Source: Escherichia coli (lineage in GTDB: Bacteria; Pseudomonadota; Gammaproteobacteria; Enterobacterales; Enterobacteriaceae). From it: a stretch of DNA of 64,000 bases. The stretch lies in the NCBI RefSeq assembly GCF_013122565.1, contig NZ_CP053258.1. One strand, given 5' to 3'. Numbering within the stretch: position 1 is the stretch's first letter; each line of letters starts with the position of its first letter. The position numbers and the translations under genes were made by a program. Below are positions 50,079-62,041 of this stretch, one piece after another. Below the pieces are notes generated by a model. That model had not been told where the DNA came from. It made no database searches and worked only from the letters and a program-made list of their open reading frames with translations.

Positions 50079-50336
50079 TGAAAATCTGACCGGATGTAAC
50101 GGTTGATAAGAAAATTATAACGGCAGTGAAGATTCGTGGCGAAAGTAATTTGTTGCGAATATTCCTGCCGTTGTTTTATATAAACAATCAGAATAACAAC
50201 GAGTTAGCAATAGGATTTTAGTCAAAGTTTTCCAGGATTTTCCTTGTTTCCAGAGCGGATTGGTAAGACAATTAGCGTTTGAATTTTTCGGGTTTAGCGC
50301 GAGTGGGTAACGCTCGTCACATCGTAGGAATGCATG

Positions 50337-50376
50337 CAGTGCTCTGGTAGCTGTAAAGCCAGGGGCGGTAGCGTAT
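50337..50376 (+). promoter_or_regulatory. JUMPstart element with ops site (GGCGGTAGCGT, 50364..50374) in the O-antigen cluster leader
   Basis: CAGTGCTCTGGTAGCTGTAAAGCCAGGGGCGGTAGCGTAT about 260 nt downstream of galF and upstream of the O-antigen genes. Confidence 0.85.
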
Positions 50377-50549
50377 CTAGGGGAAGATCATCGTGTGCGG
50401 TAAGCACAAAAATGCAAAAAGGAACGTTTTGCATGTAATAAGCATAAGCTTGTGAAGAGATCAGGGAACAGGGAAAGATCACGTAACGCCGGTTTTTTGT
50501 ACTAAATAATTCGCACTAAATGTTCAATAATTGAGACATTCCTTATTGT

Positions 50550-51700
50550 CTAAAACTGTTTTTCACAGCTTATATATGATCAAATACTCCTTACATAAAT
50601 AAGGAGAACAAAATGGAACTTAAAAAACTGATGGAACATATTTCTATTATCCCCGATTACAGACAAGCCTGGAAAGTAGAATATAAATTGTCAGATATTC
50701 TACTATTGTCTATTTGTGCCGTCATTTCTGGTGCAGAAGGTTGGGAAGATATAGAGGATTTTGGTGAAACGCATCTCGATTTTTTGAAGCAATATGGTGA
50801 TTTTGAAAATGGTATTCCTGTCCATGATACCATTGCCAGAGTTGTATCCTGTATTAGTCCTGCAAAATTTCACGAGTGCTTTATTAACTGGATGCGTGAT
50901 TGCCATTGTTCAGATGATAAAGACGTCATTGCAATTGATGGGAAAACGCTCCGGCACTCTTATGATAAGAGTCGTCGCAGGGGAGCGATTCATGTCATTA
51001 GTGCGTTCTCAACAATGCACAGTCTGGTTCTCGGACAGATCAAGACGGATGAAAAATCTAATGAGATTACAGCTATTCCTGAACTTCTTAACATGATGGA
51101 TATTAAAGGAAAAATCATCACAACGGATGCGATGGTGTGCCAGAAAGATATTGCAGAAAAGATACAAAAACAGGGAGGTGATTATTTATTCGCTGTAAAG
51201 GGAAATCAGGGGCGACTAAATAAAGCCTTCGAGGAAAAATTTCCGCTGAAAGAATTAAATAATCCAAAGCATGACAGTTACGCAATTAGTGAAAAGAGTC
51301 ACGGCAGAGAAGAAATCCGTCTTCATATTGTTTGCGATGTTCCTGATGAACTTATTGATTTCACGTTTGAATGGAAAGGACTGAAAAAATTATGCGTGGC
51401 AGTCTCCTTTCGGTCAATAATAGCAGAACAAAAGAAAGAGCCAGAAATGACGGTCAGATATTATATCAGTTCTGCTGATTTAACCGCAGAGAAGTTTGCG
51501 ACAGCGATTCGAAATCACTGGCACGTGGAGAATAAGTTGCTCTGGCGTCTGGATGTAGTAATGAATAAAAGACGACTGCAAAATAGGAAGAGGAAACGTT
51601 CAGGGATAAGACATATTGCAATTAATATTTTGACGAAAGATAAGGTATTCAAGCACGGTTAAGACGTTCGATGAAGACAGCGACTACCTGCGTCAGTCTT
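50550..51700 (+). mobile_element. ISAs1-family insertion sequence (H-repeat element); ends approximate
   Basis: Contains the intact 349-aa transposase ORF. The left boundary is estimated from where homology to the degenerate second copy at ~53200 begins; terminal inverted repeats were not resolved. Confidence 0.7.
50613..51662 (+). CDS. ISAs1-family transposase (H-repeat-associated protein), 349 aa
   Basis: C-terminal motif [18 protein letters not shown] is characteristic of the ISAs1/H-rpt transposase family; the protein is lysine-rich and its AT-rich coding sequence contrasts with the flanking core genes. Confidence 0.85.
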
Positions 51701-51848
51701 TGTGAGGAGCGGACTCTAGTAATCCAACTTTGTTGTTAGGTTTTACTCGCGGAATAATCATGGGCGAATTTTATTAAAAATGTATATTTTCCTAATTAAA
51801 AACATGTTTAAAAAAGAAACACAACTTTCAAGCTAGGTTACTTATGAT

Positions 51849-59969: not shown

Positions 59970-59994
59970 CAAGGCTATTATAAATTTATTTTAG

Positions 59995-60801
59995 GTGATA
60001 TCTATGCTTCCATTAATATCTATTATTACACCGACATATAATAGAGCATATACTCTAGATCGGTTATATAATTCTTTAGTAACACAAGACTCTGAAAAAT
60101 TCGAATGGATAATAATCGACGATGGTAGTGCAGATGAAACACGGAAGAAATGTTTAGGTTATATAAATGATTCCATTTTTAAAATACAATATTACAAACA
60201 AGATAATAGTGGTAAACCCGCAGCTATCAATTTAGGAGTAACCAAAGCTGTTGGCGATTATATTTTTATTGTAGATAGTGATGATGCTTTAACATTAAAT
60301 GCAATTGGTACTATTTATGACTGTATTGTAAAATACACAGTCGCATCTGACTTTGAATTTTCCGGCTTAGGATTTAGAAAATCTTTTTTTGATGGGAAAA
60401 TGCTCGGCAAACATATTGAGCGGAATACGAATTCACCTATGCTGTTACATAGCACAGATTGTAATAATTTATTTAAAGTCGATTTAGCATATTGTTTTAA
60501 ACGAGAATTGATGATTAAATATCCTTTCCCAAAGTTTAAAGATGAAAAATTTGTTCCAGAACTGTTTATATGGAATAAAATTACAGATGTTGCCAAAGTA
60601 ATATTTTTTCCTAATGTTGTTGTATATTATTGTGAGTATCTGGCTGATGGACTTACAAATAATTTTAAAAAACAACTTCGACATAATCCAATTGGCTTTG
60701 CAGTATACTATAAAGATCAGTTCCATAGAGAACATTCTATATGGGGGAAAATAAAAATGGCAATAAGATATATCCAATGTATTATATATAAATTCATATA
60801 G
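59995..60801 (+). CDS. Glycosyltransferase family 2 (268 aa)
   Basis: GT2 N-terminus (ISIITPTYNRAYTLDRLYNSL...IIIDDGSADET) and a later DXD-containing region (FIVDSDD). Confidence 0.8.
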   Translation: MISMLPLISIITPTYNRAYTLDRLYNSLVTQDSEKFEWIIIDDGSADETRKKCLGYINDSIFKIQYYKQDNSGKPAAINLGVTKAVGDYIFIVDSDDALTLNAIGTIYDCIVKYTVASDFEFSGLGFRKSFFDGKMLGKHIERNTNSPMLLHSTDCNNLFKVDLAYCFKRELMIKYPFPKFKDEKFVPELFIWNKITDVAKVIFFPNVVVYYCEYLADGLTNNFKKQLRHNPIGFAVYYKDQFHREHSIWGKIKMAIRYIQCIIYKFI

Positions 60802-60848
60802 TCATGCAGGGTTCATCCATTCATTTAATTAGTTGCTATGATTTTTAT

Positions 60849-61922
60849 ATGAAAATATTACATGTTGTACCACAGTTAAAGCATGGTGGTGTCGAAACTG
60901 CTGTTTTTAATTCTATTGAAAGGATAAGAAAGAGTGGATATGATTTTAATGTTTTGACTATTGAAAGAGGAAACTGCTTTAACAATTCATATGTAAAAGT
61001 AGAACACTGCTTAAATTCTTCTGTATACAATCCAGTTTGTTTTTATAAATTTATTAGATTTATTCATAAAGAAAAACCTGATTTGATAGTTTATTCTTTA
61101 TGGAAATCTGCATTGTTAGGAATTGCATTGTGTCTTTTAAAACCTTTTCTCAAAAGTAAGCCTAAAACCGCGTTAATTATACATAATACTAGGTTTGCAC
61201 ATTTTGTTGATTACATAATAACAAAACTTTCACTTAAAATAACCGACTCTATATATTTTGATTCGGAAAAATCAAAAGCTTACTTTCTGAATAGAGATTA
61301 TGCAACAGGCGAGGTTATTAGTTTTATCGATAAAAAGATGGTGGCAAAAAAATTTAATAATATCAATGGTGAGATTAAGTTTGTATTTATTGGTAGGTTG
61401 CACTCTCAAAAAGGGGTTGATAGGGCATTAAAATATATACATCTTTTTAAAAAGCAACATGAAGAAATACGATTTGATATATATGGTCCAGACGAAGGAG
61501 AATTGAATAATATTATAAATAAGATAAATAAATTAGGATTGCAGGATAAAGTTGTCTATAAAGGTGTTGTCGATAATAACAAAGTTAATGATATATTAAC
61601 CCAATATGACTTTTATCTTCAATTCAGCCATTTTGAAGGAATGGCAATGTCTGTTGTTGATGCGATGCAGGTTGGGGTTATTCCAATCGTTAATAATGTT
61701 GGTGAGATACCAAATTACGTAAAAAACAATATTAACGGCATTATCTTAGATGATAAAAAGCTTGGTGATGAAAACTATCTTAATTTAAATGTATCATGCT
61801 TATTAAATATCATAAAGAATGATGGTGGGTATTTTTTATATAATAACGCGATAAAGACATTTCAGGATAATAATACTTATGTAGATGACTATATAAAGAA
61901 AATAATAAATGCTAACAACTGA
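60849..61922 (+). CDS. Glycosyltransferase GT4 (GT1-fold) family (~357 aa)
   Basis: Track ORF 60804..61922; start placed at MKILHVVPQLKHGGVE. C-terminal GT4 signature FEGMAMSVVDAMQVGVIPIV. Confidence 0.75.
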   Translation: MKILHVVPQLKHGGVETAVFNSIERIRKSGYDFNVLTIERGNCFNNSYVKVEHCLNSSVYNPVCFYKFIRFIHKEKPDLIVYSLWKSALLGIALCLLKPFLKSKPKTALIIHNTRFAHFVDYIITKLSLKITDSIYFDSEKSKAYFLNRDYATGEVISFIDKKMVAKKFNNINGEIKFVFIGRLHSQKGVDRALKYIHLFKKQHEEIRFDIYGPDEGELNNIINKINKLGLQDKVVYKGVVDNNKVNDILTQYDFYLQFSHFEGMAMSVVDAMQVGVIPIVNNVGEIPNYVKNNINGIILDDKKLGDENYLNLNVSCLLNIIKNDGGYFLYNNAIKTFQDNNTYVDDYIKKIINANN

Positions 61923-62041
61923 TATCATGTGTTAAAATTGATTATTTAAAATGGTTTATATAGCTCCTACTAAATAATTTGGCTTTTTCGTAATGGCTGT
62001 GTAGCCGCAATCTCGCAGTAACCCCCTGACAGGAGTAAACA

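Follow-up and report, generated by a model that had tools for sequence, protein, structure and literature searches.

The locus between galF and gnd

The window is a 64,000-nucleotide stretch of the Escherichia coli contig NZ_CP053258.1. Between the end of galF (50078) and the start of gnd (62042), its + strand encodes an O-antigen operon of the Wzx/Wzy type, in agreement with the galF-gnd location given in an earlier note on this DNA. That note also described the interval as markedly AT-rich compared to its flanks, and the composition bears this out. G+C is 31.4% at 50079-61950, far lower than the 52.6% at 1-50078. Individual genes inside the interval range from 25.9 to 38.8%, and all the other 11.9-kb windows, taken upstream of it, are at or above 50.3%. 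The features, all on the + strand, are as follows.

49185-50078, +, galF: ORF, corresponding in position to an annotated galF of an O3 genome; 50.9% G+C; conserved left flank, outside the cluster
50337-50375, +, JUMPstart with the ops motif GGCGGTAGCGT: Rfam RF01707, 56.9 bits compared to a gathering score of 35
about 50378-51732, +, first ISAs1-family (ISEc1-like) remnant: NF033564, 376 bits compared to a cut-off of 70
51849-53012, +, wclR (GT4), the first cluster-encoded transferase: GT4 family matches
about 53162-53815, +, second ISAs1-family remnant, in the same orientation as the first: blastn against the first remnant
53884-55377 (PGAP start), +, wzx, O3 flippase: Pfam Polysacc_synt; named 'O3 family O-antigen flippase'
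55359-56528, +, wclS (GT2): Pfam Glycos_transf_2, single GT domain; UniProt name WclS, B5T074
56525-57610, +, wzy, O3 polymerase: Pfam EpsG; named 'O3 family O-antigen polymerase'
57617-58630, +, fnlA-like UDP-GlcNAc 4,6-dehydratase/5(3)-epimerase gene: TIGR04130; PDB 4j2o, E=3e-160; CapE, E=7e-137
58643-59512, +, RmlD-like 4-reductase gene (QnlA/WbvR type): Pfam RmlD_sub_bind; 289 aa
59502-59969, +, wbuC, cupin-fold metalloprotein: TIGR04366, 132 bits compared to a cut-off of 42
60004-60801, +, second GT2: GT2 family matches; annotated in O3 genomes
60849-61922 (PGAP start; longest ORF from 60804), +, second GT4: GT4 family matches; annotated in O3 genomes
62042-63448, +, gnd: ORF, annotated gndA in an O3 genome; 50.3% G+C; conserved right flank, outside the cluster

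All nine biosynthetic ORFs of the cluster are intact. The wzx and wzy genes named in the earlier note are present, with Pfam Polysacc_synt for the flippase and the EpsG family for the polymerase, as in a Wzx/Wzy-dependent pathway. No wzm/wzt ABC transporter ORF is found among the cluster ORFs. The reported absence of rmlBDAC, glf and wbb genes is upheld by the ORF list and family searches, and the sugar pathway does open with an FnlA-like enzyme (TIGR04130, E=8e-173). The count of five glycosyltransferases was too high, as the cluster contains only four such genes: GT4, GT2, GT2 and GT4.

Three kinds of feature had been overlooked, namely the two ISAs1-family remnants, JUMPstart and the WbuC cupin gene. 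JUMPstart, with its ops motif, is where RfaH loads onto the O-antigen operon.

Two decayed ISAs1 copies flank wclR

The two ISAs1 copies occupy about 2 kb of the stretch, one on either side of wclR. The first begins 3 nt past ops. Its ORF of 349 aa (50613-51662) encodes an ISAs1-type DDE transposase, whose C-terminus is scrambled and truncated. The ISEc1 copy in the O88 locus has an annotation that carries no pseudogene flag. Aligned with that copy, the first remnant shows indels of +1, -13, -1 and -14 nt, and its right end is degenerate. In other O3 genomes its transposase gene is split or frameshifted.

The second copy is recognizable only as DNA. By blastn it aligns with the first in two segments, one of 438 bp at 71% identity (E=1e-60) and one of 155 bp at 74% (E=3e-23). 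Its decay is heavy: about 475 bp are deleted internally, and no ORF is left. Its right end is similar to the right inverted repeat of ISAs1. A global alignment between 53013-53175 and the leftmost 150 bp of the first remnant, meant to locate the left end of the second, was not convincing, with a score of 39.5 compared to 28.1 +/- 5.9 for shuffles. Neither copy is a live element, as neither combines an intact transposase with both inverted repeats. Inspection of the sequence found no direct repeats or target-site duplications around the IS-wclR-IS segment.

The cluster matches serogroup O3

Comparison with sequenced genomes indicated that the region is very probably the Wzx/Wzy-dependent O-antigen biosynthesis operon of E. 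coli serogroup O3. Of 5,426 complete RefSeq E. coli genomes, 16 match the cluster along its whole length (100%), with identities of 98.6-99.3%, and wzx and wzy carry the name "O3 family" in these 16. The window's own Wzx and Wzy alleles are already in NCBI as O3 family. Gene content and order are those of reference O3 strains, according to the annotation tables. An exact 36-mer from wzy had no matches among GTDB species representatives, which include no O3 carrier.

All 11 elements of the locus, the two ISAs1 remnants among them, recur in unchanged order in the O3 reference strain Ceylon31 (NZ_CP076270.1), at 99.3% nucleotide identity. The differences amount to 83 positions. These include a 1-bp indel in the gene of the dead transposase, as a result of which the window has a single 349-aa ORF there. 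The window also has a 14-bp insertion just past the last gene. The cluster proteins are 98.6-100% identical to those of Ceylon31: WclS is 100% identical, Wzx 99.8%, the second GT2 and the second GT4 98.9% each, and Wzy 98.6% (356/361).

The AT-rich galF-gnd stretch is the already described O3 cluster, and the observation is therefore real but ordinary. [quoted passage not shown] (2008, J Microbiol Methods), and the structure of the O3 polysaccharide is said to have been published by Medina et al. (1994). The O3 repeat unit, which we take to have five sugars, fits the four transferases in the cluster.

The earlier note held that the serogroup could not be determined from sequence. The wzx and wzy matches show that O3 can be read from it. 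The note also expected a serogroup with a 2-acetamido-2,6-dideoxy-L-hexose in its structure, and the match satisfies this: the O3 polysaccharide contains L-RhaNAc, a sugar of this class (PMC7685785). Among E. coli O antigens, L-RhaNAc is reported only for O3, as a side branch (PMC7685785).

Exchange of the cluster between lineages

The chromosomal flanks of the window are 3-4% diverged from O3 reference strains. Divergence from Ceylon31 is 0.7% in the cluster and 3-4% in galF/wcaM and gnd. The shift is sharp, and is located at about 49973-50161 on the left and about 61945-62221 on the right. One genome shares the window's wcaM/galF allele and has a different O cluster, with homology stopping exactly at the end of JUMPstart. 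In addition, an Escherichia albertii Wzx is identical to the window's at 491 of 497 residues. Horizontal exchange of the cluster is directly supported by these sequence comparisons. The earlier description of a non-K-12 locus acquired horizontally at the galF-gnd hotspot is likewise supported. The cluster has very probably moved between Escherichia lineages through recombination in galF/JUMPstart and gnd.

A possible cassette at the head of the cluster

The head of the O40 cluster (strain SW071610, NZ_CM129858.1) has the same layout as that of O3, with JUMPstart, an ISAs1 copy, a GT4 gene and one or more further ISAs1 copies. The O40 GT4 is 70% identical to WclR in protein and 73% in DNA, and the first O40 IS is 87% identical to the first O3 remnant. 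O40 contains three IS fragments, compared to two in O3. The remainder of the O40 cluster, composed of GT25, O40 wzy and wzx, and a pyruvyl transferase, is unrelated to O3.

At 31% G+C, an enterobacterial Logan contig (ERR14048323_6751) runs from the galF end through JUMPstart and the nine genes, arranged as in O3, to gnd. Protein identity to O3 ranges from 40 to 83%, the lowest value being that of the first GT4, the wclR counterpart (40%). ISAs1 remnants are absent from this contig, and only 115 bp separate its first GT4 gene from wzx.

The layout shared with O40, the existence of a relative that has the O3 gene order and no IS, and the low conservation of wclR in that relative favor the idea that ISAs1-wclR-ISAs1 is a portable cassette, the ISAs1 copies after JUMPstart acting as movable stretches of homology. 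We consider this idea tentative and on balance doubtful. The first transferase gene, for addition of alpha-1,3-Gal onto GlcNAc-PP-Und, may have been carried between the otherwise unrelated O3 and O40 clusters. The ISAs1 copies may also show where recombination has recurred in O3, O40, O63 and O88. The alternative to a cassette is independent IS insertion at a preferred site.

Proposed assembly and expression of the O antigen

WclR is identical at 383 of 387 residues to a UniRef protein named UDP-Gal:GlcNAc-PP-undecaprenol alpha-1,3-galactosyltransferase. As cited in PMC6970434, this enzyme was characterized by Chen et al. (2016). The activity of WclR was shown biochemically for a 99%-identical protein. 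The wzx reading frame is open from a TTG further upstream (53854) as well. In a protein comparison, neither O3 GT4 resembles the GT4 downstream of the epimerase in O163, so homology does not pinpoint the L-RhaNAc transferase.

These assignments suggest a route for assembly. Transcription of the operon would start upstream of JUMPstart/ops and would pass through the two dead ISAs1 copies within it. WecA, encoded elsewhere, would form GlcNAc-PP-undecaprenol, to which WclR would add alpha-1,3-Gal. WclS, the second GT2 and the second GT4 would finish the repeat unit, one of the three attaching the L-RhaNAc side branch. Starting from UDP-GlcNAc, the FnlA-like enzyme (4,6-dehydration and 5/3-epimerization) and the RmlD-like 4-reductase would supply the donor for this branch, UDP-L-RhaNAc. 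The unit would then be flipped by Wzx and polymerized by Wzy.

From the sequence, we infer O3 expression, O3 serology and the O3 polysaccharide structure for this strain. A cluster that is O3 by sequence could instead be silent or defective here, with rough or semi-rough LPS, through polarity of the two IS remnants upstream of wzx or through strain-specific substitutions in Wzy and the transferases. IS DNA takes up about 1.35 kb between JUMPstart and wclR and a further 0.65 kb or so ahead of wzx. Compared to Ceylon31, Wzy has 5 differing residues out of 361, and three of the transferases have 2-4 each. However, none of the 16 complete O3 genomes lacks either remnant, and an O3 strain showed both agglutination with O3 antiserum and an LPS ladder (bioRxiv 10.1101/2022.07.24.501295). 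The cluster of this agglutinating strain, independently sequenced, matches the published O3 cluster at 14043 of 14049 bases (bioRxiv 10.1101/2022.07.24.501295). In the window, the nine biosynthetic ORFs and the ops element are intact, and terminator-like sites are not enriched (4 found, 4.1 expected). The scan found 93 promoter-like sites compared to 70 expected, in AT-rich DNA where such a scan for promoters and terminators is uninformative. We therefore consider a silent cluster very unlikely, and expression of O3 remains the preferred reading.

The sugar pathway is predicted to end at UDP-L-RhaNAc

The FnlA-like dehydratase/epimerase and the RmlD-like 4-reductase form the only dedicated sugar pathway in the cluster. 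The first protein matches TIGR04130 over its full length with 573.9 bits (E=8e-173). This is under the equivalog cut-off of 730, and the gene is therefore termed FnlA-like. The protein most likely catalyzes the same reaction as FnlA, judging by its similarity to PDB 4j2o (E=3e-160). For the O163 and O123 homologues, too, PGAP goes no further than the name 'polysaccharide biosynthesis protein'. The reductase gene is directly next to the fnlA-like gene, 12 nt downstream.

Related enzymes are found in the fnlA-qnlA-qnlB (WbvB/WbvR/WbvD) modules for UDP-L-QuiNAc in O163 and O123/O186, whose first two enzymes are homologous to those of O3. The FnlA-like homologue there is 68% identical to the O3 protein. 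The O3 reductase shares only 45% identity with its O163 and O123/O186 counterparts, which are encoded in fnlA-like/reductase/2-epimerase modules. The Megavirus enzymes Mg534/Mg535 make UDP-L-RhaNAc. QnlA is a 4-reductase and QnlB a UDP-L-RhaNAc 2-epimerase (PMC5560731), and the WbvB/WbvR/WbvD pathway enzymes have been described (PMC6765297).

A WbuC gene is common to O3, O163 and O123/O186. Unlike these UDP-L-QuiNAc modules, O3 has no adjacent WbuB-type GT4. O163 and O123/O186 also carry a wecB-like 2-epimerase, whereas no 2-epimerase gene is found in the O3 cluster. The O3 pathway should therefore end at UDP-L-RhaNAc, the QnlA product. This predicted product of the FnlA-like enzyme and the reductase agrees with the L-RhaNAc reported in the O3 polysaccharide.

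wbuC follows the reductase gene. The AlphaFold model of WbuC has a cupin fold (pLDDT 95), and the His/His/Glu/His cupin metal site is intact. A sequence search of the PDB with WbuC gave no match, and Pfam gave just a weak match to DUF6016. Foldseek against the PDB returned generic metal cupins, with TM scores of about 0.5-0.6 and 12-20% identity. A tie between WbuC and FnlA-type pathways was considered, and was weakened by homologues in unrelated neighborhoods without an FnlA-type neighbor.

A different endpoint such as L-QuiNAc or L-FucNAc, reached if WbuC or an unlinked epimerase performed the missing 2-epimerization, is extremely improbable: WbuC does occupy the place of the 2-epimerase gene relative to the O163 and O123 modules, retains its metal site and has cupin sugar isomerases among its best fold matches, but these matches are generic, its relatives also occur without any FnlA-type neighbor, and L-RhaNAc is reported in the O3 polysaccharide (PMC7685785). 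In addition, O163 and O123/O186 have both the wecB-like 2-epimerase and WbuC, so WbuC is not an epimerase substitute there.

Implications

The source strain is assigned to O3, which is of little importance beyond routine typing. Serogroup O3 includes enteroaggregative strains such as 17-2. The gene-to-structure logic is as expected, with an fnlA-like gene and a reductase gene, without a 2-epimerase gene, corresponding to L-RhaNAc. The locus is a clean example of O-antigen cluster exchange across deep Escherichia lineages, as the O3 cluster is carried by E. coli, by the divergent background of this strain and by E. albertii. If the cassette idea is true, ISAs1 copies at JUMPstart would help to shuffle the first glycosyltransferase gene between clusters.

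Serogroup and content of the galF-gnd cluster

The cluster between galF, which ends at 50078, and gnd, which starts at 62042, is assigned by sequence comparison to serogroup O3. In a full-stretch megablast, 16 of 5,426 complete RefSeq Escherichia coli genomes matched at 100% coverage and 98.6-99.3% identity, with wzx and wzy annotated there as "O3 family". Annotation tables of O3 genomes have the same element order. The nine proteins (four transferases, Wzx, Wzy, the FnlA-like enzyme, the reductase and WbuC) are 98.6-100% identical to those of the O3 reference strain Ceylon31 (NZ_CP076270.1). 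The window's exact alleles are found in NCBI under E. coli (QJU23759.1 and its neighbours), named O3 family flippase and polymerase, and Logan assembly SRR11451224 matches window 45019-59010 at 100% identity. Ren et al. 2008, as cited in bioRxiv 10.1101/2022.07.24.501295, described the O3 cluster. The O3 strain of that preprint agrees with this published cluster sequence at 14043 of 14049 bases, and O3 antiserum agglutination and an LPS ladder are reported for it. The earlier note held that the serogroup could not be read from sequence, which the matches of wzx, wzy and the whole cluster to O3 genomes do not bear out. Its finding is right in substance, and the locus is already described.

The low G+C content noted earlier was confirmed. 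Region 50079-61950 has 31.4% G+C, compared to 52.6% for window 1-50078, and none of the 11.9-kb windows upstream of the cluster falls below 50.3%. In 500-bp windows, G+C drops from 0.53 at 49500 to 0.25-0.39 across 50500-62000, and is 0.49-0.51 in gnd. All long ORFs of 50079-61950 are on the + strand. NCBIfam, Pfam and Rfam scans, together with annotated genomes used for comparison, gave the order of elements.

Elements of the O3 cluster (window coordinates)
50337-50375, JUMPstart with ops motif (Rfam RF01707, 56.9 bits)
~50378-51732, ISAs1 (ISEc1-like) remnant #1 (NF033564, 376 bits)
51849-53012, +, wclR, GT4 gene (GT4 family matches)
~53162-53815, ISAs1 remnant #2 (DNA similarity to remnant #1)
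53884-55377, +, wzx (Polysacc_synt)
55359-56528, +, wclS, GT2 gene (one GT2 domain)
56525-57610, +, wzy (EpsG family)
57617-58630, +, fnlA-like gene (TIGR04130)
58643-59512, +, RmlD-like reductase gene (RmlD_sub_bind)
59502-59969, +, wbuC cupin gene (TIGR04366)
60004-60801, +, second GT2 gene (GT2 family matches)
60849-61922, +, second GT4 gene (GT4 family matches)

The earlier gene list correctly included wzx, wzy and the FnlA-like enzyme, and was also right that rml, glf and wbb genes are missing from the cluster. It overlooked the JUMPstart, both IS remnants and wbuC, and counted five glycosyltransferases where family scans find four, two GT4 and two GT2. A 14-bp stretch, TTAAAATTGATTAT, is located at 61932-61945, just 3' of the last glycosyltransferase gene, and is missing from O3 reference strains.

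Predicted UDP-L-RhaNAc pathway

Only two genes of the cluster are dedicated to nucleotide sugars, the fnlA-like one and that for the reductase. The FnlA-like protein has a full-length match to TIGR04130 (E=8e-173), although its 573.9 bits fall short of the equivalog cut-off of 730. Among solved structures, it closely resembles those of FnlA/CapE (4j2o, E=3e-160). In the related QnlA/QnlB pathway, QnlA is a 4-reductase and QnlB a "UDP-L-RhaNAc 2-epimerase" (PMC5560731). Vibrio cholerae WbvB/WbvR/WbvD follow the same scheme (PMC6765297), and the Megavirus enzymes Mg534/Mg535 produce UDP-L-RhaNAc (PMC4691112). The E. coli O163 and O123/O186 modules contain fnlA-like, reductase, wecB-like 2-epimerase, GT4 and wbuC genes. 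Compared to these modules, the O3 proteins are 68% (FnlA-like), 45% (reductase) and 36-41% (WbuC) identical, whereas the 2-epimerase gene is absent from O3. The pathway should therefore end at UDP-L-RhaNAc, the predicted product. According to the review PMC7685785, O3 is the only E. coli O antigen with L-RhaNAc, located in a side branch; the matched serogroup thus contains a 2-acetamido-2,6-dideoxy-L-hexose, and the refutation check set by the earlier note comes out in its favour.

WbuC belongs to a family with 1,023 representatives at E<=0.001. Residues H27, E59, G66, H100 and G117 show no variation, and H50 and H52 almost none. Its AlphaFold model is confident (pLDDT 95.3), and Foldseek found only generic metal cupins (TM ~0.5-0.6), archaeal phosphoglucose/phosphomannose isomerases and thiol dioxygenases among them. 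Relatives occur both in O3-like clusters and in unrelated neighbourhoods. In two Logan assemblies (SRR30464818 and SRR30464829), a 37% identical family member has radical-SAM, TPR/OmpA-domain and thioredoxin-like genes as neighbours and lacks sugar-nucleotide genes in its vicinity, so the family is not limited to FnlA-type pathways. WbuC does not stand in for the 2-epimerase, because O163 and O123 carry both. It is not counted as a required pathway step.

Proposed repeat-unit assembly

The first GT4 is identical at 383 of 387 residues to a protein named in UniRef as UDP-Gal:alpha-D-GlcNAc-diphosphoundecaprenol alpha-1,3-galactosyltransferase, which identifies it by similarity as WclR. WclR was characterised by Chen et al. 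2016, according to a citation in PMC6970434. In the proposed assembly, WecA would prime with GlcNAc and WclR would add alpha-1,3-Gal. Completion of the unit, L-RhaNAc included, would fall to WclS and the last two transferases, before Wzx flips it and Wzy polymerises it. The remaining sugars would not require cluster genes. WecA and four transferases presumably fit a five-sugar O3 repeat unit.

Exchange of the cluster and chromosomal background

The proposed horizontal acquisition at galF-gnd is supported by comparison with Ceylon31. Only 0.7% of sites differ within the cluster (50100-61900), compared to 4.1% in wcaM/galF and 3.1% in gnd, and divergence changes sharply at ~49973-50161 and ~61945-62221. 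Genome GCA_052983875.1 has the same wcaM/galF allele as the window (99.7% identity over 44957-50374). Past 50374 it carries a different O cluster, and the end of the JUMPstart is the exact limit of homology. This shows O-antigen switching within this chromosomal background. An O3-family Wzx is also present in E. albertii (491/497 identity).

For window 1-24000 and 30000-50078, the highest identity to any of the 5,426 genomes is only 97.1-97.5%, with differences spread evenly over core genes (baeS-mdtABCD, yegI, dgcE, asmA, colanic acid genes); the source lineage therefore seems to be absent from this set. Despite the NCBI label E. coli, it may belong to an early-branching or cryptic Escherichia clade.

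Other elements in the window

Three tandem Sib antitoxin RNAs (Rfam RF00113, 141-150 bits) are found on the - strand at 9313-10118, in the mdtA-yegL gap. Another RefSeq E. coli genome (L006) has three annotated Ibs-family toxin genes at the corresponding position, on the opposite strand; 9313-10118 is a type I toxin-antitoxin array with three Ibs/Sib pairs. A second JUMPstart (57.3 bits, + strand, 26054-26092) is located upstream of the colanic acid operon, with the wza ORF at 26271. An algC RNA motif (RF02929, 77 bits) is found at 40479-40528 (+), at the start of ORF 40485-41903 in the colanic acid gene region. A naRNA4 match (RF02564, 73 bits) at 44918-44988 (-) lies in the gap between one ORF that ends at 44832 and another that starts at 45108.

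ISAs1 remnants at the cluster head

Both ISAs1 copies flanking wclR are dead. Aligned with the ISEc1 copy of O88, whose annotation carries no pseudogene flag, remnant #1 has indels of +1, -13, -1 and -14 nt, so its 349-aa ORF has a scrambled, truncated C-terminus. Remnant #1 and the 840-bp interval between wclR and wzx align in two blocks, one of 438 bp at 71% (E=1e-60) and one of 155 bp at 74% (E=3e-23), and remnant #2 lacks ~475 bp from the middle relative to remnant #1. Two O3 genomes, KMi029 (L003 ~3890-4250) and 2022CK-00450, have ~360 extra bases in remnant #1, composed of an intact ISEc1-like 3' end followed by a partial element repeat. Recombination with other copies is therefore still remodelling remnant #1.

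The JUMPstart-ISAs1 junction is found in 50 of 5,426 genomes, including the 16 O3 genomes as well as O88 and O63 genomes. ISAs1/ISEc1 is located at the same point, 3 nt past ops, in O88 (L002 14001-15662) and O63 (L009 7001-8861); the O63 copies are frameshifted. A 10,019-bp Logan contig from another enterobacterium (ERR14048323_6751; 31% G+C) contains a galF-like end, JUMPstart, the nine genes in O3 order and gnd (87% identical); no IS is present. Identity to the O3 proteins is 40-83% and is lowest for the first GT4. By this comparison, the same order in an IS-free contig shows the nine-gene order to predate the IS insertions.

The O40 cluster (L010 7336-12230, NZ_CM129858.1) has a head similar to that of O3, consisting of JUMPstart, ISAs1, GT4, ISAs1 and ISAs1, whereas the rest is unrelated. 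WclR and the O40 GT4 share 70% protein identity, and remnant #1 and the first O40 IS share 87%. No target duplications flank the ISAs1-wclR-ISAs1 segment, so its transposition as a unit is not supported. The IS-flanked wclR may later have been exchanged between O3 and O40. This ISAs1-GT4-ISAs1 head common to the O3 and O40 clusters is the only thread that is mildly novel.
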